From a virus (taxonomy: Duplodnaviria > Caudoviricetes): a stretch of 40,429 nucleotides of DNA. Below are positions 465-40,429 of this stretch, one piece after another. Below the pieces are notes generated by a model, which was not told the DNA's origin, did not search any database, and worked only from the letters and a program-made list of their open reading frames with translations. The stretch covers positions 1 to 40,429 of the IMG/VR virus record IMGVR_UViG_3300037515_000543, one strand, 5' to 3'. The first letter of the stretch is position 1. Each line of letters opens with the position of its first letter. The position numbers were made by a program, and so were the translations under genes.

Positions 465-530
465 TAGTGAGTGGCTCGTAATGAGCAGCGCTCCCAGCGC
501 AAACGGCCGTATGGCCAAAGGAACCCGAAA

Positions 531-1402: not shown

Positions 1403-1479
1403 TAGCAGGCAGCAAAAACGGCCGTTTCCCCACCTCGTCAAAAGCAAAGGAAACGGCCGTATCACGAGGAACTAAACCC

Positions 1480-1734
1480 ATGACAGAACAATTTTACCAC
1501 ACCGTGATCATCCATCTGCATATCGCTTACGATGGCACGCTTCACTTTTACAACCGGCGAGAAAACGGCCGTATCGTCGTCGATGCCAAGCCCATCAGCG
1601 CCCAGCGCGCCGCCGACATTATGAAACTGAACGACGACGATCCGGCCGTGCAGACGAGCAAGCGCCCCATCGGCAGCGGCTGGAGCTGGATGGCCAGCGT
1701 CAATGTCCAGGTGGAGGAGCTGGCCAATGCATGA
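1480..1734 (+). CDS. Hypothetical protein
   Basis: GAGGA SD, ATG 1480, in the frame of ORF 1351-1734. Confidence 0.7.
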   Translation: MTEQFYHTVIIHLHIAYDGTLHFYNRRENGRIVVDAKPISAQRAADIMKLNDDDPAVQTSKRPIGSGWSWMASVNVQVEELANA

Positions 1735-4748: not shown

Positions 4749-5135
4749 CTATATCAGCGGCCAGTCATAATTCGGCCGTCTGGTCCTGCACTCATCCAAT
4801 AATTTGTAAAGCTCACTGCGGCGCTCCATATAGTCGATCAGCGCCCAGAGCTTCAAATCTTTGTTTTCACCTTCCAGATTTTCCCAATCCACCCCCAGGG
4901 CCATGCACAGGCTAATCACATCGGCATTGTTAAACGCCGCGTCCATGAGACGCTGCAAATATTTGCGGTCAACGAAGTAGCCCGTGTCCTTGTCTCGGCG
5001 CTTCGGTACGCCAATGGCTTGCCACCAGCGGCGCTGTTCGTCGATCTGCTGCTGCTGCTTTTGCAATTCGCCAGAGTGATTTTTTAGCAGCGCGGCAATC
5101 TGCCTGAAATCGCCGGTCCAAAAGCGCTTGATCAT
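4749..5135 (-). CDS. Protein with C-terminal effector-associated domain (EAD7-like)
   Basis: L..AF...DV..LCMALGVDWENLEGENK..K...LIDYMERR..L..LL..C...RP...W matches the EAD7 pattern as I recall it. Confidence 0.65.
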   Translation of the reverse strand: MIKRFWTGDFRQIAALLKNHSGELQKQQQQIDEQRRWWQAIGVPKRRDKDTGYFVDRKYLQRLMDAAFNNADVISLCMALGVDWENLEGENKDLKLWALIDYMERRSELYKLLDECRTRRPNYDWPLI

Positions 5136-22610: not shown

Positions 22611-24297
22611 TCATCGCCTCCCGTAAATCCACCAGCAAATCAGAAACGGCCGTTACCTGCCGGTTCCAGATCGCCTCACTCGTTTCCTCTTCCTCACTAT
22701 CCTCCTCCTCCTCCTCCCCACCTGCCGGGGCAGGGGAGAGCCGCGCCGCCATCTCATCCGCCCGCGCCTGGCGCGCCTCCTGCTCTTCTTGCCATATCCC
22801 CATCACCGCGTCAACGTCATCAATCCCCAGCTCGGAGATGAGACGACGAACGGCCGTTTCCAGCGGAATGCCAACGCCTTCGCTGCGTCCGGCCAATGTC
22901 TGCGCCTCAATGATAGAGCCGATGGTTTCTTTGATGTCGTGCTGAATAATCGACGGAAAGGCCACGGCCACAGTCGGGTCAATGTCATCATTCCAGTTTA
23001 CGCGTTCGTGCACCTGGTCACCGTCCTTCTCTGGCACCATCCGTCCCAGGCTGCGCAGCGGGCCTTGTGGCGCTTTCACCGCCCACAGCATCGCGTAGCC
23101 CAGAATGTCACCCAGGACGCTTTTCCATAAAGCCTGCCGATCCATAATCAGCAGCTCAGTGGGCCGGTCCAGTGATTTAGCCGTGGCCAGGCTGCCCACG
23201 CTGGCATCGCCGAAAAAGGTTTCGGGAAAGCCAAAATCCATAATCGCCATGAGCAGCAGGCGACGGCCGTCCTCCGCGCTCATGGTAGCCCCGGCCGTGC
23301 GGAATGGTTGCAGGTCCGTGCCCTCGCCGCTGATGAAGGTGGAGCCGGTGACCGGCGGCGGATTCGTTTCATCGCCCAGCCCGCCGCCCAGCGTCGTGTT
23401 CAGTTTGGCCTTAGCCGCCGCCACGCCGCGTTTGCCGCCCTGCACGGTGAGCTTGGCAGCCCAGCGGGCCAATGCCTGCCACACTGACGCCAGCTGCTCT
23501 AGGAACGATTTATAGGCCAGCGCCCAATCGTTGCCCGCGTAAAATTCCGATACTCCCCAACGGCCCATCTTGTTTGTGGCCACGTGGTAGACCGGCGTGT
23601 CCCAGTCGACACGGCCGTTTATCCCGCCCAGCGTCGCCAATTTCTCTGTGAAGCCGACTTTGGAGCGGGGGGTAAATTGCCAATCGGGGTAATAAACGGT
23701 GTGGGCCACCGTGCCGCCGTCGAGATTCCGCTGCACCCAGACGCGCCGGTAGAACCACGGTTCGCGCTTGTCCTCGGGATTGCAGATGATGTCGTCGATT
23801 TCCTGCGGGTCAATGGTGCTGAGGCGGATACGGCCGTTTAGCGCGTTGACGTGGAATCGAAAGAAGAGATTGCCGTCCTGCTGCAAATCCGTCTCCCGCT
23901 CGCCGCGCGCCTGGTGGCCGGTCAATTCGGCGCGGTTGCGTTCATCGTCGATGAACGCCTGCACCGTGGCGTTGATTGTTTCGTCGGCGGCCGAAATGTT
24001 GACGCCCTGTGCCCAGACGTAGAGGCGCTGGATTTTGACGCCGCGCTTGATGATCGGGTTTTTCAGGCGCATGATCCGGGAGAGTTCCGTGATTTGGCGC
24101 AGGCCCGCGCGGGTAAACTCCTGATCGGCCTGCATACTCATCATACGCCATTCGGTGCTGTAGAGCAGCTGCTCCAGGCGCTGCAGAGATTCGGTGAGCT
24201 GCCAGATTTGGCCGCTTTGGGAAACGGCCGTTTCCTGTAGACTGCTCAGTTTGCCGCCGGTCAGCCGGTCGGCTATGGATTCGGTTATTGTTGCCAT
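22597..24297 (-). CDS. Portal protein
   Basis: 566 aa directly after TerL; DGNLF and FPETFFGDAS.GSLATAKSL motifs. Confidence 0.85.
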   Translation of the reverse strand: MATITESIADRLTGGKLSSLQETAVSQSGQIWQLTESLQRLEQLLYSTEWRMMSMQADQEFTRAGLRQITELSRIMRLKNPIIKRGVKIQRLYVWAQGVNISAADETINATVQAFIDDERNRAELTGHQARGERETDLQQDGNLFFRFHVNALNGRIRLSTIDPQEIDDIICNPEDKREPWFYRRVWVQRNLDGGTVAHTVYYPDWQFTPRSKVGFTEKLATLGGINGRVDWDTPVYHVATNKMGRWGVSEFYAGNDWALAYKSFLEQLASVWQALARWAAKLTVQGGKRGVAAAKAKLNTTLGGGLGDETNPPPVTGSTFISGEGTDLQPFRTAGATMSAEDGRRLLLMAIMDFGFPETFFGDASVGSLATAKSLDRPTELLIMDRQALWKSVLGDILGYAMLWAVKAPQGPLRSLGRMVPEKDGDQVHERVNWNDDIDPTVAVAFPSIIQHDIKETIGSIIEAQTLAGRSEGVGIPLETAVRRLISELGIDDVDAVMGIWQEEQEARQARADEMAARLSPAPAGGEEEEEDSEEEETSEAIWNRQVTAVSDLLVDLREAMNGHS

Positions 24298-26437: not shown

Positions 26438-26591
26438 TTTACCTACAAATACCTACATGTTAGATGAGGTCAATTTATGCCCATTTGTATCACTATCCGA
26501 AAAATACACCTAAAATATACATACCGATAATTCAAAGTTATGGGTATCTGTGAATATATTTCACTTTAGCGGCTATTTCTTACGGCCGTTG

Positions 26592-26735
26592 CTACAACCC
26601 AGTCGCCCCAGCCAGCCAGGCCGCAACCAGCAGCGCTTTCCCCAGCTGGTCCCAGTTGACCCGGGCGGCCACACCAGCCGCGCCAAGCGAAAAAGAAACC
26701 AATGCCAACACCGCGAGAATTATTTGTAAACTCAT
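26592..26735 (-). CDS. 47-aa membrane protein
   Basis: Manual translation MSLQIILAVLALVSFSLGAAGVAARVNWDQLGKALLVAAWLAGATGL. Confidence 0.55.
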   Translation of the reverse strand: MSLQIILAVLALVSFSLGAAGVAARVNWDQLGKALLVAAWLAGATGL

Positions 26736-26736
26736 C

Positions 26737-27138
26737 TCACACCCTTGCCAGCCGCGGCAACGGCCGTTTCCGGTTCCCCGGCCATCGCAGCAAAAAAGCC
26801 AGCGGCGCTTGTTCCTCCGCTGGCTCCAAAACTTGAATATCGAATGACGCTTTAATTGGCCAGGAAACGGCCGTTTCTAACTCGTTCAATACCGCTGCGT
26901 AATCCATCCGGTACTTTTTCGACAGATACCCGGCAAAGCGCTGGCGCTGTGGGCCGGTCAACTCACCCATAGCCAGATCGTAAGCCAGGACCGGGAACGC
27001 CCTCCCCTGCTGCTCTTGCCAGCGCGGGGTGGCAGCCATCACCGGGAGTGTGTCCGTGCCAAAGACGTGCAGCCAGGTAGCCTGGCGCTTTTCGTCAGTG
27101 GTTTGGATCAGGTGGATAGAACGGCCGTTTGTGAACAT
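26737..27138 (-). CDS. Hypothetical protein, paralog of 29123-29443
   Basis: Shared WLHVFG and LT..QR.R motifs. Confidence 0.75.
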   Translation of the reverse strand: MFTNGRSIHLIQTTDEKRQATWLHVFGTDTLPVMAATPRWQEQQGRAFPVLAYDLAMGELTGPQRQRFAGYLSKKYRMDYAAVLNELETAVSWPIKASFDIQVLEPAEEQAPLAFLLRWPGNRKRPLPRLARV

Positions 27139-27145
27139 AATACTA

Positions 27146-27174
27146 ATTTTAACATAAAGCGGGATACGTGTCTA
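27146..27174 (-). promoter_or_regulatory. Sigma70-type leaderless promoter
   Basis: TAGACA-17-TAAAAT with extended TG, 7 nt upstream of ATG 27138. Confidence 0.65.
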
Positions 27175-27185
27175 TTTGCGTGGTG

Positions 27186-27314
27186 TTAGCCCTCCTGCAC
27201 ATACCCCAACCACCCGCCATTATCCCGCGCCTCTGGCGGCACAAACTCCATTTGCAGCGCCTCAAACACATCCGCCTCCTCTGCTGTGGGGATGAGCTGG
27301 TGCTGCCAGGTGTA
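27186..27314 (-). pseudogene. Orphan 3' fragment of a second PolX allele
   Basis: 27197-27314 is 112/118 identical to 28556-28673; reads ...YTWQHQLIPTAEEADVFEALQMEFVPPEARDNGGWLGYVQEG-stop. Confidence 0.85.
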
Positions 27315-27354
27315 CGCTGGCAGCTGCTATCACGAGGCGTTTGGGTAGGAAATG

Positions 27355-27380
27355 AAAAAGCCCGGCAAGGGCGCCGGGCT
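27355..27380 (-). terminator. Rho-independent terminator
   Basis: AGCCCGGC-gccctt-GCCGGGCT followed by TTTT on the minus strand. Confidence 0.8.
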
Positions 27381-27405
27381 GTACTTTTACAATCGAATAT
27401 TTGAC

Positions 27406-27696
27406 CTATTTTGGTGCGGGATTTTTACGCGGGCGGCCACCTTTACGGCCGTTTGCGCGGGCTGCTGCGGATTTGGCTTTGCTGGTGACGGATCCGCCCC
27501 GACGGCCTAGGGATTGCGCGGCTGGGTCGCTGATGTCTTCGTAGCAAAGCGTAGGCTGATAGCCGCGTTCTGCCCAGAGCAGTTGCTTATCTTCATATAT
27601 CTGCAATGCCCGACCAGGGCTGTCACATACACACTCACCCAACTGCTCTAGGACTTTGTCAAGCTCAAGGTCTTTAATGTAGATTTTGATTCTCAT
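27406..27696 (-). CDS. Small protein with basic GRKGGRPRK (AT-hook-like) tail
   Basis: GAGG SD; C-terminus SLGRRGGSVTSKAKSAAARANGRKGGRPRK. Confidence 0.75.
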   Translation of the reverse strand: MRIKIYIKDLELDKVLEQLGECVCDSPGRALQIYEDKQLLWAERGYQPTLCYEDISDPAAQSLGRRGGSVTSKAKSAAARANGRKGGRPRKNPAPK

Positions 27697-27756
27697 GATT
27701 TTTCCTCTTGTCGGGTTTACCCACCCACCCGGCGAAGGTTATTTTTAATCGCCAGA

Positions 27757-28065
27757 CTACCAATCTTTTCCATGCCCCTCGGTGATGAGGTCGTAATACT
27801 GCGCCCGGCTCATTGTTGATTGTTGCTGCGCGGCTTGGGGGCGGGGGCTGTTGTCAATATCAAGGCCGATTTGGTTACGGATTTCCGTGAGGGCCATCAA
27901 TTTGTCAACGTTTATGCGCCAGCCCTGCGTGGCTTCATCCCAGGTTCCGCCACAATGTTGACGGATAAAGTTTTTTACATCATAGGTATCACCGGTCAAT
28001 AAATTGCCGTCTAACTGTAAGTTTTTCTTTTCATTTCTGCCGCTGTAGGTGAAGTATGTTGTCAT
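27757..28065 (-). CDS. Hypothetical protein
   Basis: AAGGA SD; follows its own promoter. Confidence 0.75.
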   Translation of the reverse strand: MTTYFTYSGRNEKKNLQLDGNLLTGDTYDVKNFIRQHCGGTWDEATQGWRINVDKLMALTEIRNQIGLDIDNSPRPQAAQQQSTMSRAQYYDLITEGHGKDW

Positions 28066-28103
28066 TTCCGTATCCTTTTCTGCTGTATTTGTAAGATGTC
28101 TCT

Positions 28104-28132
28104 ATTGTAAGCTAACCGCTTGGGTTTAGCAA
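28104..28132 (-). promoter_or_regulatory. Sigma70-type promoter of the two-gene moron
   Basis: TTGCTA-17-TACAAT. Confidence 0.7.
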
Positions 28133-28259
28133 TAGCAAAAGGTACTAATTACCTTAAATTTTTCTACCAATTTCAAAACTGGTCAAATATTCGATTCACA
28201 ACGGCCGCGAGGGATGCGCCCCACTCCACTCAGCAACCAGGCGCATACGGCCGTATCAA

Positions 28260-28291
28260 CAACCGGGCAACCGGACAACCGGACAACCGAA
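28260..28291 (+). repeat. Four tandem 8-mers CAACCGRR
   Basis: caaccggg caaccgga caaccgga caaccgaa. Confidence 0.8.
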
Positions 28292-28305
28292 GGAGAAAGC
28301 GTACC

Positions 28306-28674
28306 TTGCGCGTCCTCAAAATCTACCACCGAGGCAGCGGCTACGGCCGTGTGCTCACCGACGCCGAGCCCGAACACCATCTGGGTGATTTTATCCGGCT
28401 GGAATCGGCCGCCCTGCCCGACCTGGCCCAGCTGGCGGCCGATGTGCTGGGGGATGAGCAGCCGCTGCTGCCGCCGCAGCACCAGCGCAATCTGGCGCGG
28501 TGGATTTTGCGTCATGGTTGTGAGAGGTGGGGAGAACGGCCGTTTCACGCTTCGCGCACATACCCCAACCACCCGTCATTATCCCGCGCCCCTGGTGGCA
28601 CAAATTCCATTTGCAGCGCCTCAAACACATCCCCCTCCTCTGCTGTGGGGATGAGCTGGCGCTGCCAGGTGTAG
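28306..28674 (+). CDS. Possible inverted (plus-strand) gene or gene remnant
   Basis: AAGGAG SD, TTG start, phage-like codons and protein-like sequence up to ~28540; 3' end runs antisense into PolX. Confidence 0.4.
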   Translation: MRVLKIYHRGSGYGRVLTDAEPEHHLGDFIRLESAALPDLAQLAADVLGDEQPLLPPQHQRNLARWILRHGCERWGERPFHASRTYPNHPSLSRAPGGTNSICSASNTSPSSAVGMSWRCQV

Positions 28675-29138
28675 AGCAGGCCGCCGATAAACTTAACACT
28701 CACCTGCGGGGCACGGGTGCGCATCAGCCACATATTAAAATCGTGGCTGCCGGTGCGAATGGTAAAGACGCTGCCCCAATGGGCCGGGGATTCCGGCATG
28801 AAGAGATCGACGGAGTAACGGCCGTATTGAAACTGGATATATTTCTGGACCGTCTTTTTCTTTGGGTCGTAGCCGCCTTTGATGATATGCACCCGCTTTT
28901 CCAGCAGAAACGCCTCGACGGACGTAAGGCCGGGCACAGTGATGCCCAGCAGGTCAGTTTGGCGCATTGGCAGGCACACAATCTCAATATCGCCAATTTG
29001 CGGCCGCTGGCGGCGGATGCTGCCTGCTACGGCAATGCGGTGGCAAAATGGGTTCAGCGCTTCGAGAATGTGCCCGGCCGTTTTCTGGGCGGCGGCGAGC
29101 GGGGTTTTGGGGGTGGCGCTCATTACAGCCACCGCCAC
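28545..29138 (-). CDS. polX: Minimal family X DNA polymerase-like nucleotidyltransferase (no PHP domain)
   Basis: VAGSIRR...IGDIEIV, VDLF, IRTGSHDFN, EEGDVFEALQMEFVPP..R motifs. Confidence 0.88.
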   Translation of the reverse strand: MAVAVMSATPKTPLAAAQKTAGHILEALNPFCHRIAVAGSIRRQRPQIGDIEIVCLPMRQTDLLGITVPGLTSVEAFLLEKRVHIIKGGYDPKKKTVQKYIQFQYGRYSVDLFMPESPAHWGSVFTIRTGSHDFNMWLMRTRAPQVSVKFIGGLLYTWQRQLIPTAEEGDVFEALQMEFVPPGARDNDGWLGYVREA

Positions 29139-29443
29139 GGATTCGCAATCGTCACCGTCACGTGCTCAGCCAGGATCGGGCAGCCGTGTGTATCGAGGTC
29201 GCTTTCCACCTCTTCTGCCGCAATATCGAATTTGGCAGCGATGTGCTGCACCAGGCGGTCGCGCTGTTCGGCCGTCAGTGCTTCGATGTCTAGCATGTAG
29301 ACCTGTTCCGGCTCGCGGTCAGGCAATTTGGCCAGCTGCGCAATGGGAGAGCGCAGCGGTACGACCTCGCCTCCAAAGACATGCAGCCAGGCGGCGGCGC
29401 GCTCGTCATCGCCGTAAACGTGGGCGGTGAAGTCTTTGCTCAT
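29123..29443 (-). CDS. Hypothetical protein, paralog of 26737-27138
   Basis: AGGAGG SD inside the junction repeat; WLHVFG motif. Confidence 0.8.
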   Translation of the reverse strand: MSKDFTAHVYGDDERAAAWLHVFGGEVVPLRSPIAQLAKLPDREPEQVYMLDIEALTAEQRDRLVQHIAAKFDIAAEEVESDLDTHGCPILAEHVTVTIANPWRWL

Positions 29444-29724
29444 GATGCCTCCTGGGAAACGGCCGTTTCCAATTCTGGATTAGCCAGCAACATCGCTGAC
29501 TCGATTTTTGGTATGTCCTCATTTGCAACCTGCCGAACGGAAAACTTTAGACTCAGGGCATTGTTGTCTATGCCCCAGTAGTTTCGCAATTCAAGAGCAA
29601 CGGCCGTCTCGATACCTGCCATTATGCTGCCCATGTGTTGACCTACCATGTGTTTTAGATTGCTGTTGTGTACAACTTTCTCGACCGTAAAGGAAACAAC
29701 TGAACAATCATCGAAATTGCTCAC
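29440..29724 (-). CDS. Hypothetical cassette gene ending ETAVSQEAS
   Basis: Bounded by 23-bp repeats; AT-richer than flanks. Confidence 0.75.
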   Translation of the reverse strand: MSNFDDCSVVSFTVEKVVHNSNLKHMVGQHMGSIMAGIETAVALELRNYWGIDNNALSLKFSVRQVANEDIPKIESAMLLANPELETAVSQEAS

Positions 29725-29951
29725 GATTGCACCTCCTGGGAAACGGCCGTTTCCAGCGCCCTCTGATTATCCAAAAACGTTTTCAGGACATCCCACTCAT
29801 GCGGCTCTATGCTGAAATCAACCTGCGTTTTATCAGCAAACAGCACCGTAAAGCCAACCCCTTGCTGATAGTCGATCAATAATTCAGAATCGTTATTCCC
29901 GCTGATGGTTACTTTAATCACGACGATGCCTCCTGGGAAACGGCCGTTTCC
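29448..29951 (-). repeat. Three identical 23-bp junction repeats GGAAACGGCCGTTTCCCAGGAGG (29448-29470, 29732-29754, 29929-29951)
   Basis: Exact matches read from the sequence; each is palindrome plus SD at a gene boundary. Confidence 0.95.
29721..29921 (-). CDS. Hypothetical cassette gene ending ETAVSQEVQS
   Basis: Bounded by 23-bp repeats; GTGA overlaps. Confidence 0.75.
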   Translation of the reverse strand: MIKVTISGNNDSELLIDYQQGVGFTVLFADKTQVDFSIEPHEWDVLKTFLDNQRALETAVSQEVQS

Positions 29952-30172
29952 CGCTCCAGCTGCTCTTGTGCAATCGTCAGCAGCTCAGCGGCCGTAAACT
30001 GGTAGCTGATGCCGTTTTCATCGGTCACGCTGATGAGTGTCTGGCCGCAGCCCCAGTCGCATTCCAGCAGCGTGACGGGGCCGTGGTGCTCCATTACTAC
30101 GGCGGTGCTGTGTTCGCAGGTTTGGGTTGCTGTGGGGGCGGCGGTTTCGTAGGTTGGTTTGGGTTCGGTCAT
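29918..30172 (-). CDS. Hypothetical protein (CxH...CxxxC) ending ETAVSQEASS
   Basis: AAAGGAGCAAC SD. Confidence 0.75.
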   Translation of the reverse strand: MTEPKPTYETAAPTATQTCEHSTAVVMEHHGPVTLLECDWGCGQTLISVTDENGISYQFTAAELLTIAQEQLERETAVSQEASS

Positions 30173-30282
30173 TTTGTTGCTCCTTTGGTTTCCTTTGGTA
30201 AGACGGCCGTTTCCCGTTCGCTGCGAACGCCCCCTGCCCTGTTGTGAGGTGTGGGAAACGGCCGTTCGGCCGTGGTTGGGTG

Positions 30283-31119
30283 TTAGCCCTCTATTGATAC
30301 CCCTTCTGAAAGGGGTTTTTTGTATTCATAGTAACGCCAGTAACTCATGACTTCCTCTGGAACATCCAAAGGCAACGGATCGCCGCTAGGTTCTTTTGCA
30401 ACCTCTATCACTATGCCCATTTCGTCATCGTTGTACACACCAAGCCAATCGGCGGTGTTTTTCCGGTTGTAAATCGCGTTCTTTAGGGCTTGGTTCAAGA
30501 AGTCATGAAGAGACTTTAGCGGCGTAAACTCTCTGTAACTTTGCGGAAGGTGGCTAACTTCCCCTACCCGCTTTATCAATACATGTTGATTATCAACGAA
30601 TCGGAAATTAAAGCCTTTTGCCCAAAACGCCTGGAAATGTTCATTCTCGCCGGTAAGCCAGTGACCCCAGCGAAAAAGACTGAACATTGATGGAAACCGC
30701 TCATGGTCATCAGGTTGTCTAAAATGCCCCTTGTGCGTCATTCTAAAACGATGTACCTCCCCCAATTCGAGGATCGTTTTCTTATTGGGTCGCTCTTCGA
30801 GAAGTTCCGCGCCGCTGCTTTCATATTCAATAACTGGCCTAACAAACTGCTTTGGCTTCTCTTGCAAATGAGGGAACGTTTGGCGCATGGTCTCAACAAA
30901 ACTCAATAGCTTGTCGCTGGCGGAAAACCACTCGCCCCGCCCCGCCTCATCGCCGAATGCAATGTGTAACCCTGCCTCAAACTCAGTTCCGCCAGGCGCA
31001 ATCGCAAGAATCTCTAAAGACTCAGGGTTTCCGGTTTGCAATGAGGTCAGTCGCTTCCAAGGGTCTATCGACTTGCCTATCTTGATGTTGTTGCCACACT
31101 TGATAAAATATACGGCCAT
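30283..31119 (-). CDS. GIY-YIG/T5orf172-domain protein
   Basis: VYFI.....IKIGKS.DP.KRL.SLQTGNP..L...E..LH..F.....GEWF; AAGGAG SD; AT-rich. Confidence 0.85.
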   Translation of the reverse strand: MAVYFIKCGNNIKIGKSIDPWKRLTSLQTGNPESLEILAIAPGGTEFEAGLHIAFGDEAGRGEWFSASDKLLSFVETMRQTFPHLQEKPKQFVRPVIEYESSGAELLEERPNKKTILELGEVHRFRMTHKGHFRQPDDHERFPSMFSLFRWGHWLTGENEHFQAFWAKGFNFRFVDNQHVLIKRVGEVSHLPQSYREFTPLKSLHDFLNQALKNAIYNRKNTADWLGVYNDDEMGIVIEVAKEPSGDPLPLDVPEEVMSYWRYYEYKKPLSEGVSIEG

Positions 31120-31244
31120 TGGCGAAAGCTCCTTAAACAAAAGCGCCCCGGTGATTCGATAAGCTTCGCCAGAAGGTCGAATCACGCGGGGCGCATGATT
31201 AGTATATTCGATTAGCTCTGGCGAAGCTAGGAAGAATTATACCA
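31120..31244 (-). promoter_or_regulatory. Extended -10 promoter plus structured leader with complementary TTCGCCAG/CTGGCGAA boxes
   Basis: TGGTATAAT at 31236-31244; 17-bp bulged stem 31143-31194; boxes at 31218-31228, 31162-31172 and 31120-31130. Confidence 0.7.
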
Positions 31245-31262
31245 TGAAACGGCCGTTTTTGA

Positions 31263-31505
31263 TCACGCAGCTTCCATTTCTTCCTGAACCAATTCAAGGT
31301 TTCCATCGTTCAATTCGAACCCAGGAAGAAAGACCAAAATGCCCGCCTGCCCTGTTACCTTGGCATGTCTTACCACTATGTCGTGACCGCCGTCTCTCAC
31401 CTTAAGTGCAGTATTTACCACTAGTGCCACAGCGTCAAAGCGGCTAAGACTTTCGGTGCTTGGCGGCGTCTTCTTTTGCTTTTTCAACTTCGTTGATTGG
31501 GACAT
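31263..31505 (-). CDS. Hypothetical protein
   Basis: GAGG SD, protein-like ORF. Confidence 0.65.
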   Translation of the reverse strand: MSQSTKLKKQKKTPPSTESLSRFDAVALVVNTALKVRDGGHDIVVRHAKVTGQAGILVFLPGFELNDGNLELVQEEMEAA

Positions 31506-32861: not shown

Positions 32862-32974
32862 TTTCGTTTCCTTTTTTGGTTGGAAACGGCCGTTTCATCG
32901 GTTACAATGTTGACGGCCGTTTCCTGCATAGTTGACGGTCAAGGTGGAGGTCGGCCCGCAAAGGCTGACCTTTA

Positions 32975-33517
32975 CTAAAATCCCAACGCTTCCAGCCAGT
33001 CGGCTACCCCGGCCCGCGTCCACAAGTTTTCATCTACCAATTTGATCATCTCATCGGCCAGGTTATTGTGGCGCCCGGTCGGCCCAATCACCTGGCGCTG
33101 TCCAACGTTGAAGCCAACGCGCTGGCTCAGCCGCCATACGGCCATGCTGTAGCTAAAGTCCGGTCGTTCAATCGATTGTGGCCCAAAGGCGCCAGCGTAG
33201 ACAGCAGCCAGAGCACACGTGCGCCACTCTTCGCGCCGCTCGTAGGCATAGTAGCCAATCTGGACACACTCAACGAAGGAATTGCGGCACAGTGGATGGT
33301 ACTGGCGGCCGATGCGCAGCAGCTCGCTCAATGGCTGTTCCTGCGGCTTGCTGGTGGGTACGTAGCCGGGAATGATGATCGGCTCGGGCTGCTGCTGCGC
33401 CAACTCGCCTGCTGGCTGCCACATCGGCAGGGCAGGGCGGGTGGTTACGGCCGCTTCCTGGCCGGTGTCGATATTGAATAAGGTCAACAGGGGGCGGACA
33501 TTTTTTACAAGATTCAT
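32975..33517 (-). CDS. Hypothetical protein
   Basis: Protein-like ORF in operon order. Confidence 0.7.
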   Translation of the reverse strand: MNLVKNVRPLLTLFNIDTGQEAAVTTRPALPMWQPAGELAQQQPEPIIIPGYVPTSKPQEQPLSELLRIGRQYHPLCRNSFVECVQIGYYAYERREEWRTCALAAVYAGAFGPQSIERPDFSYSMAVWRLSQRVGFNVGQRQVIGPTGRHNNLADEMIKLVDENLWTRAGVADWLEALGF

Positions 33518-33520
33518 TTC

Positions 33521-33613
33521 TCACCATCCAGATGCCGCGACGCCAAGCGCTAGCAGCAAAATAGTTGTGATTGCAATCGTGCTCACAATCAGCTTCATGC
33601 TCTTGATTCTCAT
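33521..33613 (-). CDS. 30-aa hydrophobic peptide
   Basis: Manual translation MRIKSMKLIVSTIAITTILLLALGVAASGW fills the gap between neighbouring genes. Confidence 0.45.
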   Translation of the reverse strand: MRIKSMKLIVSTIAITTILLLALGVAASGW

Positions 33614-33616
33614 GGC

Positions 33617-34072
33617 TCACCGTCCTGGGCCGAGCAACTCGGCCGCATTGGTGGGGCAGTGGGGCGGCAGCCGACGGCCGTCTTGCTGGGCGGCTGCACA
33701 GGCAAGCAGCTGCTCATCCGTCAGCGGTCGTACGGTCGCAGTTGGTCGCGCCAGCATTTCGGCGTAGTCAATGATGGCCTCTGGCTCCTGCTGAGGAACG
33801 GCCGTTGGCGGCAGCTGCGGCACCAGGTTGGTGATCGCTGGCTCGCTGTTGTCATCGACGATGGTGAAGGTGACACCGGGTGCGGCCGTGGCTGCTGGTG
33901 GCAGGATGAGGTTGTTGAGGTTCTGGCCCTCGAGGTAGGGAACGGCCGTTGTGTCCTCTGCATTCGCGGCGATGCTGGCCAGAACACGGCCGTCGTTGAG
34001 GAAGAGGTCGGACACGATCAGCGCCAGGATAACAAGTAAAATGGTATTGAGGGGGTTGCTGTTGTTTTTCAT
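33617..34072 (-). CDS. Membrane-anchored Pro/Thr-rich protein
   Basis: AAAGGAGCAAC SD before ATG 34072; N-terminal TM helix. Confidence 0.75.
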   Translation of the reverse strand: MKNNSNPLNTILLVILALIVSDLFLNDGRVLASIAANAEDTTAVPYLEGQNLNNLILPPAATAAPGVTFTIVDDNSEPAITNLVPQLPPTAVPQQEPEAIIDYAEMLARPTATVRPLTDEQLLACAAAQQDGRRLPPHCPTNAAELLGPGR

Positions 34073-34087
34073 GTGTTGCTCCTTTTT

Positions 34088-34163
34088 TGCTACAATAAAA
34101 TAAGCCGGGTTTGGGTTGCTCCTTTCCCGGTGGGGCTGGTGGTTGCTCACCAGCCCCTTTTTT
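34088..34163 (+). ncRNA. Predicted ~60-nt two-hairpin antisense sRNA with its own promoter and terminator
   Basis: TGcTACAAT at 34088-34096; stem CCGGG/CCCGG; stem GGGGCTGGTG/CACCAGCCCC plus T6; both loops carry GTTGCT. Confidence 0.6.
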
Positions 34164-34165
34164 GA

Positions 34166-34537
34166 TTACGAATGTTTTCCCGGCAAATAAACCGGCTCCA
34201 ACTCCCCGCGCCGCACGGCCGTTTCCTGCTGCCGAATCTTGGCGCGGTTGCGGAGGTAGGTCAGCGGGTCAACCGTACGGCCGCCGCGCTTCACCTGCTG
34301 GGCCTTCGATGGCTTGCGGGTGCGCTGCTGCCGATTGGCGTAGCTGTCCTGCCACGCCTGGCCACTGCTGCGGTATTTGGCCACGCGCTCCACATCGGCC
34401 CGCCGGTAGTAGTAACCGTTATACGGTGCGCCCGGCTTGCGCTGGATGGTCTCGAAGCCGGTGACCTGGCTCAGGTTTCTACGCGATGAGATGCCGAGGA
34501 GAACGGCCGTTTCGCGGGAGGTTAGCCAGTCGGTCAT
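34166..34537 (-). CDS. Excisionase/MerR-like HTH DNA-binding protein
   Basis: WLTSRETAVLLGIS and YYRRADVE motifs; TGATG overlap. Confidence 0.7.
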   Translation of the reverse strand: MTDWLTSRETAVLLGISSRRNLSQVTGFETIQRKPGAPYNGYYYRRADVERVAKYRSSGQAWQDSYANRQQRTRKPSKAQQVKRGGRTVDPLTYLRNRAKIRQQETAVRRGELEPVYLPGKHS

Positions 34538-37126: not shown

Positions 37127-37834
37127 TTATTGTCTCCACGCGCTTATGATGTTGCGGCAGCTGCGCGCGAAAGCCTCGTAGGGTGCGTCTGCCGCCCCGC
37201 TTCCGTCACCCCATTTGCGGCCGTCGTAATCAACCAAGCTGGGCCAGAATCCGCGCTGCGTAGTCTTACATGGGTCAAAAAATGAATTAAACTGAGTAGC
37301 CATTTTTAGGTGCATATTTCCATCTACACTCACCACATCGGCGAAGTTTCGCATTTCGCTGTGTATCTGCATTTGCCGCTGCGGGGATCCGCCTAGCAGA
37401 TGTACGGGCCATCCAGAAAACTCCAGCATGGGCACATCTGTTTTGCCGTGCCGGGTAGGAACTGAATACCCAAGCACGACTCGCCGGGAATTGATGTGCC
37501 GGGGAATTTTTTTGATCGTGCCAGGAACCTTTGGGATCAACAGTATCGACTCCCGAACATGCTCGGCAATTTCCTCCGCCCGTAGCATGATCTCTTGGTA
37601 TCCACGCCCGGCGTGCCAGTCATGTACTGATGCCATAGTTGGTTGGTGCCGCCGCAATTTTGAAACGTAATCCCACTGGTTTGGCGGCCGCTCTGGGTGT
37701 AAATCAACAAAGTGAAGGTCATAGTAAACAGTTCCTGGCATTTGCGCGCCGTACAGGAATCCCGCATCAATAGCGATTTGCGCAAATCTCTTATTTCCGT
37801 TGGCACAGTAAATCAGCTCAAGGTCAGTCGCCAC
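37127..37834 (-). CDS. TGT/DpdA-like TIM-barrel protein (tentatively DUF6610-like)
   Basis: VHLLGGS and VSVDGN motifs resemble transglycosylase H.LG and D-S motifs. Confidence 0.5.
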   Translation of the reverse strand: MATDLELIYCANGNKRFAQIAIDAGFLYGAQMPGTVYYDLHFVDLHPERPPNQWDYVSKLRRHQPTMASVHDWHAGRGYQEIMLRAEEIAEHVRESILLIPKVPGTIKKIPRHINSRRVVLGYSVPTRHGKTDVPMLEFSGWPVHLLGGSPQRQMQIHSEMRNFADVVSVDGNMHLKMATQFNSFFDPCKTTQRGFWPSLVDYDGRKWGDGSGAADAPYEAFARSCRNIISAWRQ

Positions 37835-38107
37835 AATTCAATCCTCACACTCACCCCGTGCCCGTTCGCGGGCACTCAGGCGGCTGCTCATCAACGATGC
37901 GGCCGTGACGCACACGAGGGAGGTGGCCACAAATAAAATTAAAATAATCAGGATGGTGATGATCGCATTCATTCCGGCTCCCAAAAAAGGGGCAGGCGGC
38001 GGGGCTTTGCAGATTGCCTACGGGGATCGCGTATTGTGGAGGTCGTATCATCGTACCCATTCATGGAAGAAGGTAATGCCCGCCGCCCGCCGCCCGGCAA
38101 ACGGCCG

Positions 38108-38317
38108 TTAAGCCGGGATTGCTAAAGTGTTTTCGTAGGCCCGCCGCTGCTCATTTACGAGCCGCTCACGGTTCTTTAGCTCGCTGTCTACGGCTTCCGC
38201 CGGAACGAACCACTTGCCAGCCTCATCCTGACGACCGTTTAACTTAGCAAACGCCAACGCAGTAGGGTAGGACCACCCAAGAATATTTTCTATGTTTTTT
38301 ATCGTTAATTCGTCCAT
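38108..38317 (-). CDS. Small HTH-like regulator from a leaderless transcript
   Basis: LTIKNIENILGWSYPTA...GKWFVP; first gene at the divergent switch. Confidence 0.7.
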   Translation of the reverse strand: MDELTIKNIENILGWSYPTALAFAKLNGRQDEAGKWFVPAEAVDSELKNRERLVNEQRRAYENTLAIPA

Positions 38318-38324
38318 GACCACC

Positions 38325-38353
38325 ATTCTATAGGAAATCAATACCAATGTCAA
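38325..38353 (-). promoter_or_regulatory. Leftward sigma70 promoter
   Basis: TTGACA-17-TAGAAT, 7 nt upstream of ATG 38317. Confidence 0.85.
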
Positions 38354-38371
38354 TTGATTTATAGAAATTGG

Positions 38372-38400
38372 TTGACACATAGTAGAAAATAGTTTATACT
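38372..38400 (+). promoter_or_regulatory. Rightward sigma70 promoter
   Basis: TTGACA-17-TATACT. Confidence 0.85.
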
Positions 38401-39836: not shown

Positions 39837-40429
39837 GTGAGTAATCAACTGAACGAAATCCACACTATGCTCGAAGCGCTGCTCAAAAGCAGCAATCATA
39901 TTCATTGGATCGGCGGCTACGTGTACGGCCGTACATCCCAGGATGACCCGTTTGTCATCCTCTACCCGGCCAGCGATATGCTGAAAGAAAAAGCGGTGCG
40001 CGTCTACGAGCACGATTTTCGCAAGCTGCCGCCGTTCATCGCCACCGACAACGTTCCGGCCGATACCGAGAACAATCCCAACAAAACCCAGGCGCAGAAG
40101 AGCCGCATCTATCACACCTGCCCGCTCTTCAAAATCTGCACCTACGACGGCAAGGATACCCAGATGGGCAAAGAAAAGCGTTTCGGCGGCGTCCTGCGGG
40201 TGACAGACAGGATGCCAAATGCCCCGAGCGTAAGCGAAGCGTCGCCAACGGCCGTTTCCCAGCCAGCCGCCAAACCAGCAGCAGCACCGGCCGCGAACGC
40301 CAACGGCCGTTCCAAAACCGACCACTTCCTTCAGGTCGGCGATGAGGTGATGGTGCGCGGCAAAAAAGACGAAAAGCCCGGCACCATCCTGGACACCAAC
40401 GGCGGCGAACTGTTCACCGTATCCGTCGA
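39837..40429 (+). CDS. 216-aa hypothetical protein continuing across the circular junction to 185
   Basis: GGAGG SD at 39826-39830, GTG start, open frame to the contig end. Confidence 0.8.
   Translation, partial: MSNQLNEIHTMLEALLKSSNHIHWIGGYVYGRTSQDDPFVILYPASDMLKEKAVRVYEHDFRKLPPFIATDNVPADTENNPNKTQAQKSRIYHTCPLFKICTYDGKDTQMGKEKRFGGVLRVTDRMPNAPSVSEASPTAVSQPAAKPAAAPAANANGRSKTDHFLQVGDEVMVRGKKDEKPGTILDTNGGELFTVSV
40303..40429. repeat. Terminal direct repeat, identical to 1-127
   Basis: Exact identity. Confidence 0.95.

Follow-up and report, generated by a model that had tools for sequence, protein, structure and literature searches.

Junctions and genes of the accessory row

The window, i.e., the whole stretch of 40,429 nucleotides analyzed here (IMG/VR record IMGVR_UViG_3300037515_000543), is the 40-kb genome of a tailed phage; it has a 127-nt terminal duplication and encodes terminase, portal, capsid, tail-tube and tape-measure proteins. 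Between its replication genes (a DnaC-like loader and an initiator) and the terminase lies a row of small coupled genes that contains the junctions described below. The features concerned are the following; relatives, samples and gene families are cited by our own handles.

30283..31119, minus strand: gene with a MUG113 (T5orf172-type) domain (PF13455), upstream of the row
30196..30277, minus strand: conserved leader of the row; contains two palindrome cores as well as the Shine-Dalgarno (SD) site of P0001; common to G007 and G008
29918..30172, minus strand: P0001, 84 aa, first gene of the row; its family usually ends in the junction peptide
29929..29951, minus strand: junction 1, 18-bp palindrome and AGGAGG; ETAVSQE of the 84-aa gene; GTGA overlap
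29721..29921, minus strand: P0002, 66-aa cassette gene, 0.47 G+C; its unit, 29732-29928, measures 197 bp
29732..29754, minus strand: junction 2, 16-bp palindrome and AGGAGG; GTGA overlap
29440..29724, minus strand: P0003, 94-aa cassette gene, 0.46 G+C; its unit, 29448-29731, measures 284 bp
29448..29470, minus strand: junction 3, 16-bp palindrome and AGGAGG; ATGA overlap
29123..29443, minus strand: P0004, 106 aa, the gene that follows junction 3; in sample X6, the sequence joined upstream of its start is non-palindromic
28545..29138, minus strand: DNA polymerase beta thumb-domain gene (PolX-like, PF14791), coupled to the row
28535..28545, no strand: bare palindrome, 11 bp shared, marking the place where the window and G007 differ by a 1,894-nt indel
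32862-32900 (minus strand), 30180-30210 (minus strand), 495-530 (plus strand) and 1445-1482 (plus strand): a second class of palindrome-led gene leaders

The three junctions are exact copies of one 23-mer, GGAAACGGCCGTTTCCCAGGAGG on the minus strand, repeated with periods of 284 and 197 bp. This 23-mer combines the upstream C-terminus ETAVSQE, an SD site and the stop/start overlap: the three consecutive upstream proteins (84, 66, and 94 aa) end in ETAVSQEASS, ETAVSQEVQS and ETAVSQEAS, respectively, and an (A/G)TGA overlap opens the gene after each copy. An earlier note on this DNA had described the copies, their periods, the shared protein ends, the AGGAGG sites and the overlaps, as well as a perfect palindrome of 16 bp within the 23-mer, and all of this was confirmed, with the palindrome extending to 18 bp in junction 1. 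The note was also right in calling the two enclosed genes AT-richer, since the genome has a G+C content of 0.57 and each of the flanking genes one of 0.61, and they rank fourth and second lowest in G+C among the 57 called genes.

No additional copy of the 23-mer was present in the window at up to three mismatches, and none appeared in 100 dinucleotide shuffles. This shuffle null is too lenient and overstates the surprise, because the palindrome core, ACGGCCGT, is already so common in the genome: it occurs 92 times in positions 1-40302, whereas a second-order Markov model predicts 2.2 copies, and no other palindromic 8-mer comes close to it in number. A fairer test is the spacing of the SD site after the core, for which the excess remains sharp. 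The full 16-mer palindrome has a fourth copy in the window, in the start of the portal gene (24220-24236, near 24224), where it is not followed by an SD site.

Several alternative origins and roles of the repeats were rejected. Mis-assembly was ruled out by a contig, likely from the source run, which covers 26500-31500 unbroken and without any difference; as this contig may be the record's own source, it excludes mis-assembly only. Chance arising from the abundance of the palindrome was also ruled out, the 18-mer made of palindrome and SD site being absent from three of four host genomes and occurring once in the fourth, within a prophage-like contig. A role as an mRNA hairpin was discarded, as the three junctions fold differently and no better than shuffled sequences (z from -0.09 to -0.50). 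A structured RNA was likewise set aside, Rfam giving one weak and unrelated match only, and no promoter-like or terminator-like site was detected on the minus strand of 28400-31400.

Five of the six relatives of P0001 end in (E/K)TAV(S/A)QE.., and the sixth is fused to another gene; in one relative, the junction peptide comes after a different stretch of 50 residues (two loci, L007 and L008, were left out as weak matches to P0001). P0002 has one relative, in G006, which lies behind the same junction and a different upstream gene and itself ends in a shortened junction, ETAGGEA. Among the four relatives of P0003, one ends in ETAVSQEAS, two go on, where ETAV would stand, into an additional domain, and one is tailless. 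P0003 had no family match in Pfam, PHROGs or NCBIfam and none in the ESM Atlas, and its alignment used as a query found no viral locus. Recognizable cargo at the junctions is rare (ASCH, HerA/DUF87, ParB-HTH), and neighboring genes of the same operon manage without the palindrome. The PolX-like gene shares 91% nucleotide identity with G007, where an ASCH-like gene comes before it. The MUG113 gene occupies the same place in three of the eight mapped records, namely the window, G007 and G008.

Further observations concern the surroundings of the row. The thumb-domain protein, also found in G007, is of the stand-alone PolX/DNA polymerase beta type, and the 3′ end of its gene is present as a direct repeat of 118 bp (95%) at 27197-27314 and 28556-28673. 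Between these repeats lies a 1.2-kb block with 96% identity to a sequence located elsewhere in G008; the block looks like an insertion through homologous recombination. The second class of leaders consists of the core followed by an A-rich stretch and AAAGGA or GAGGA; the leader near 32886 is common to G007 and G008, yet heads a different gene family there. Near the lysis genes, 4749-5135 encodes a small protein with an EAD7 (effector-associated) domain, which is also found at L037:7870-8445 (G010).

The palindrome in the phage and in its likely host

In the phage, ACGGCCGT has a density of 2.3 per kb; the corresponding value for the bacterial genome G002, over 340 kb, is 1.2 per kb. Within the called genes of the window, 40 of the 61 cores lie in the frame that reads T-A-V. 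A degenerate pattern of the junction matched eight GTDB contigs, six of them labeled Ardenticatenaceae, Anaerolineae or Anaerolineales. Four of the five corresponding genomes tested contained 366-756 copies of AAACGGCCGTTT, compared with 0-2 copies of a control word, and of 151 genomes sampled from the class, two contained the 14-mer. In the family of G002, at least 500 copies of AACGGCCGTT were counted in 32 of 61 genomes, and at least one copy of the 16-mer was present in 36 of 61. The 340 kb of G002 hold 415 cores, which are most often followed by TTCC(C), like those of the phages; the junction palindrome is thus the longest consensus of the host word. The palindrome signature, together with a prophage-like contig (G005:C24) that carries the junction, suggests that the host is likely a member of the Chloroflexota, in an Ardenticatenaceae-labeled lineage of Anaerolineae.

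The word is over-represented tens-fold genome-wide and has palindromic extensions, and in this it behaves as a highly iterated palindrome (HIP). A C5 methylase was present in one of five palindrome-rich genomes, and a shared N6/N4 methylase occurs in 27 of the 32 rich genomes and in 19 of the 29 poor ones. Among the genomes compared, which are incomplete and in which specificity is unreadable from sequence, no methylase was seen to follow the palindrome. In three genomes of this family (G174, G178, G205), AACGGCCGTT is scarce (0-20 copies) and the control word TTGCCGGCAA occurs 1086, 250, and 343 times, respectively, so that TTGCCGGCAA is likely an alternate HIP there; these genomes also lack the 661-aa N6/N4 methylase. 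Around the cores of G002 (L054-L070), the excess of G over C amounts to +4.7 per 100 nt on the left and -1.5 on the right, a flip that is not seen around the cores of the phages (-0.7, -1.7).

Junctions and neighbor switches among related phages

The earlier note had proposed a search for the 23-mer in the host and in other phages. The exact 23-mer was recovered from four other IMG/VR records, one of which holds three copies, and from one metagenome contig (same record as L004), and none was found in GTDB contigs; relaxed patterns brought in G010, L016 and G005:C24. In total, seven other phage or prophage records have the junction in the same accessory region. The pattern, which was derived after the fact from the variants found, gave 18 matches in eight records, i.e., 17 gene junctions and one intragenic match, and the junctions of each record fall within 800 bp. 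Single matches in core-poor DNA were dropped (L013, L018, L021, L022, L044, L046, L048, L050, and nine further loci), as were intragenic matches (L017, L019, L020, L024, L038/L110, G009:37776).

All 17 junctions are read in the T-A-V frame of the upstream gene and carry at their 3′ end the SD site and start codon of the next gene, the SD site being part of the pattern used; 14 of them have the 4-nt overlap. The genes that meet there are highly diverse, 15 unrelated upstream families facing 15 unrelated downstream families over the 17 junctions of the eight records, and relatedness is limited to three upstream genes of the P0001 family and two downstream pairs. Thus, the comparison of gene content called for by the earlier note revealed different genes at the same junction, and the outcome that would have spoken against its reading, a constant gene order with diverged junctions, was not seen.

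The spacing between palindrome and SD site is conserved. In seven phage genomes, AGGAG at distance five after any core was observed 20 times, against 1.1 expected per position, and it was absent from all 830 host half-sites; this fixed spacing is phage-specific. The left arm is also near consensus, with GGAA in 11 of the 18 pattern matches against 122 of 1382 other phage half-sites. Lineage-specific versions exist, TTCCCAGGAGG being found in four records and TTCTGAGGAGG three times in G010, which has its own version. Also, spacers and tails are common to unrelated genes across junctions.

Breaks of homology or neighbor switches were found at each junction. The homology of G006 to the window here is limited to the P0002 unit (87.6% over 29746-29954, 209 nt) and ends at 29746, inside junction 2; in G006, this unit follows an unrelated gene ending in GPETAVSQEASS. 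G008 and G009 share P0001 until 29929, and then continue into different genes. In X4, a sample from another study, a contig of 332 nt corresponds to 29862-29951 with 90 of 90 positions identical (84 of 90 only for G006), then goes on into 30 bases identical to the upstream gene of G006, which places a switch of neighbor at 29951. A second X4 contig matches 29449-29527 with one difference before entering another coupled gene, hence a switch at 29449, and a third is identical to 29500-29654; the X4 contigs are short, have a depth of 3-5 and may derive from more than one phage. In X6, the neighbor switches at 29453, where the start of P0004 is joined at AGGAGG to the sequence without palindrome. 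In X5, a junction is followed by a gene starting MSEPTNCR (read by hand from a loose end), the same gene being found at a plain boundary in G008; also, 35 bases of junction 1 together with its left flank recur unchanged in another pair of genes. A loose end of the source run, also read by hand, corresponds to a G010-like phage. These comparisons show near-identical cassettes with different neighbors and a break inside the junction, and gene replacements between relatives are bounded by the repeat, in a hypervariable region.

The earlier note had gone further, predicting that crossover between repeats adds or removes exactly one gene. The different genes at the same junction, the breaks of homology there and the preserved frame and coupling agree with its reading; as to the exact step, no close pair of phages was found to differ by one cassette with both flanks kept, all cases being replacements. 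Neither a skipped junction nor a circle of 197 or 284 bp was detected in the contigs of the source run and of six others, contigs being a material that drops such variants; in runs X2-X7, uncovered parts of the stretch were never counted as absence.

Joints are also not confined to the palindrome. Among the alignment ends near junctions, 5 of 10 fall on a shared palindrome, and 210 of all 247 ends do not. Several abutting alignment pairs meet at SD/start microhomologies, the G007 relative of P0001 is a mid-gene fusion without palindrome, and joints occur within the SD part, after the start codon and at plain gene starts. The joints in the SD part and at gene-start microhomologies point to homology, and away from a fixed cut site. 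Of the shuffling system that the note had envisaged, the building of the junction on an iterated palindrome is supported, and this palindrome is shared with the likely host; a confinement of the joints to the center of the palindrome is not supported.

The window appears to be devoid of an integrase although its relatives are temperate-like. No match to PF00589 or PF07508 was obtained in the window, a profile search of limited sensitivity since it overlooked the weak integrase of G008, and the integrases of two relatives used as tblastn queries found no match there; the statement of the earlier note that the genome has no integron integrase agrees with these searches. Tyrosine integrases are present in G007, G008, G010 and G005:C24, away from the row. 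No RecT was detected in five records, no recombination protein among the window ORFs scanned against Pfam, PHROGs and NCBIfam, and nothing in the ESM Atlas for 39837-40304. At 37127-38380, a DUF6610 gene and small ORFs occupy the place of the tyrosine integrase of G007. Two relatives encode an actin-like (ParM/ALP-type) protein (L033:5976-6971, and L037, i.e., G010 33245-34222), which suggests plasmid-like prophage maintenance.

Explanations for the junction and comparison with known systems

Taken together, our data make it probable that the 23-mer is the standard gene junction of a group of uncultured phages, where crossover over short homology likely swaps single accessory genes between phages, without a dedicated integrase. 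The junction is built from the longest consensus of the iterated palindrome of the likely host, followed by AGGAGG and the stop/start overlap, and a mutational drive of the host towards the palindrome may supply the seed. A crossover anywhere in the 18-35 shared bases would keep the full ETAVSQE tail as well as the SD site and overlap of the next gene, and recombinants would survive because every product retains a complete upstream protein and coupling. Exchange would rely on short homology anywhere from the palindrome to the start codon, SD site and spacer included, and would take place when phages co-infect a cell or meet a prophage. Within a lineage, the copies may be held identical by gene conversion or by repeated exchange. 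Less confidently, new genes might enter via crossover at an in-frame palindrome near their own 3′ end. Against this explanation, a stretch of 18-23 bp is a short homology for RecA-type exchange, and RecT was not detected in the five records searched; the candidate enzyme would be a RecA-type protein of the host or an unrecognized annealing protein of the phage.

Two rival explanations deserve consideration. According to the first, which we regard as quite unlikely, a host enzyme that recognizes the palindrome for nicking, repair or site-specific recombination cuts or pairs at ACGGCCGT, an activity that the phages exploit, the junction being an optimal site before an SD site and the exchange being site-directed. 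The full palindromic consensus on both arms is indeed far commoner at junctions than at other sites, two relatives of P0003 switch domain at ETAV, and HIP1 has been linked to site-specific recombination (PMC4390886). Moreover, outside the junctions, the 11-bp palindrome is the sole stretch shared at the 1,894-nt indel between the window and G007; however, such a palindrome-bounded indel accounts for only 1 of the 14 listed pairs of abutting alignments, reciprocal duplicates included. Of 247 alignment ends, 37 coincide with a shared core (32 of 237 when those near junctions are left aside), compared with 93 of 1685 interior windows, but these ends are non-independent and attracted by conserved motifs, so that the threefold excess is an upper guide. 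The joints in AGGAGG and past the start codon also argue against a cut at the palindrome, and no candidate enzyme emerges, the methylase counts given above included.

A broader claim, which we hold to be unlikely, is that a host enzyme acting at ACGGCCGT drives the exchange. Any gene of host or phage that holds an in-frame copy close to its end could then be captured into the row, whereby it would acquire the ETAVSQE tail and become coupled to the gene that follows. If true, this would be an integrase-free cassette system with the palindrome as a universal cloning site, and it would reveal what HIP-type palindromes do.

The second rival, rather improbable in our judgment, holds that the junction is an expression signal, i.e., a protein-binding or translation re-initiation site gained by selection, and that undirected swaps merely seem to end there, as joints elsewhere are lethal to genes. 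Selection for intact genes can yield boundary-matched mosaics without targeting (PMC3233612), the SAS of mycobacteriophages offers a precedent (PMC3203893), and both the fixed SD spacing and the confinement to one early accessory operon fit such a signal. However, the three junctions differ in their mRNA folds, which are no better than those of shuffles, adjacent genes of the same operon lack the palindrome, and palindromes in general are not enriched at gene ends (35 against 29.9 expected). The identical copies within lineages (such as the three of G010), the shared spacers and tails and the 35 bases in X5 need an exchange of sequence beyond convergence.

A true integron or CALIN, with the junctions as attC-type sites for an integron integrase of phage or host, is extremely unlikely, since "integron-like", the term of the earlier note, applies to the layout only: gene and 3′ site stand in tandem and the palindrome contains AAC...GTT, but the hairpin is of 6-7 bp only (-4 to -6 kcal/mol), the site overlaps coding sequence, the window is without integrase, and the two integrases of relatives that were tested gave 30.4 bits and no match on the integron integrase model TIGR02249, whose cut-off is 265. 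Neither GTTRRRY nor its complement, RYYYAAC, occurs on either strand of 29401-30000. GTTRRRY is the R-box motif of attC sites, and parts of integrons do occur in phages (PMC9892861). Integrons and CALINs share with the row the tandem units of one gene and a 3′ site and the variable content (PMC8618304; PMC9892861); they differ by IntI and attC boxes, both absent here, and here the site lies within coding sequence and the joints are not at a single fixed base.

The closest known systems are the PeSL cassettes of T4-type phages, in which repeats that end in an SD site and start codon lie between small unrelated genes of a hypervariable region, relatives differ in gene content at the repeats, and no integrase is involved (PMC2839356; PMC4122927). 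The authors of these studies themselves liken PeSLs to integrons (Arbiol et al., 2010, PMC2839356; Comeau et al., 2014, PMC4122927). However, PeSLs are intergenic cassettes of about 100 bp with a sigma-70-like promoter and a terminator stem-loop (PMC2839356; PMC4122927), whereas the junction of the present phages is a fifth as long (18-23 bp), forms part of the coding sequence of the upstream gene and is devoid of promoter and terminator; it keeps coupling and comes from a signature of the host genome. PeSL mini-circles have been shown by inverse PCR, at about 1 in 100,000 virions (PMC2839356), whereas contigs alone were examined here. The kind of system is one already described for the T4-type PeSLs, and the row is not itself a PeSL, an integron or a CALIN.

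Other parallels can be drawn. As in the boundary-sequence model of phage mosaicism, in which recombination is targeted to short conserved sequences at gene boundaries (PMC3233612), the joints lie at gene boundaries. In the present case, the boundary is a perfect palindrome that recurs at thousands of sites in the host and also encodes a C-terminal peptide. HIP1 and the alternate HIPs of cyanobacteria are likewise GC-rich palindromic octamers, present at 1-2 per kb and with palindromic extensions (Elhai, 2015, PMC4390886); patchy replacement by another word among relatives and a suggested role in recombination complete the likeness (PMC4390886). The word (ACGGCCGT) and the phylum are different, no cognate methylase was found, and the palindrome is here part of a phage gene junction; CGGCCG is absent from the text of PMC4390886. 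The SAS/ESAS of cluster K mycobacteriophages is also an SD-containing repeat just 5′ of non-structural genes of different families, but it is asymmetric, 13 bp long, absent from the host and proposed for translation rather than shuffling (PMC3203893), while the present junction is palindromic, with a core abundant in the likely host and only the full combination of palindrome and SD site being phage-specific. NTS/SRM repeats have an Ssn-type GIY-YIG nuclease (PMC11893778); here, the neighboring gene has a MUG113 domain in the three mapped records mentioned above. In the literature covered, largely that of open-access journals, no description of the palindrome in Chloroflexota or of the junction was found.

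These phages thus offer a compact and measurable case of the boundary-sequence model: every crossover in the 18-23-bp junction would give a working operon, because the junction carries the C-terminus, the SD site and the stop/start overlap. It stands out in that a HIP-like palindrome of the host, in its full consensus, forms the junction. What HIP words are for is a long-standing question (PMC4390886), and the phages provide a direct assay of whether or not such a word promotes recombination beyond its homology length. Also, the approximately 15 small cassette genes are candidate factors of interaction with the host in a little-studied phylum.
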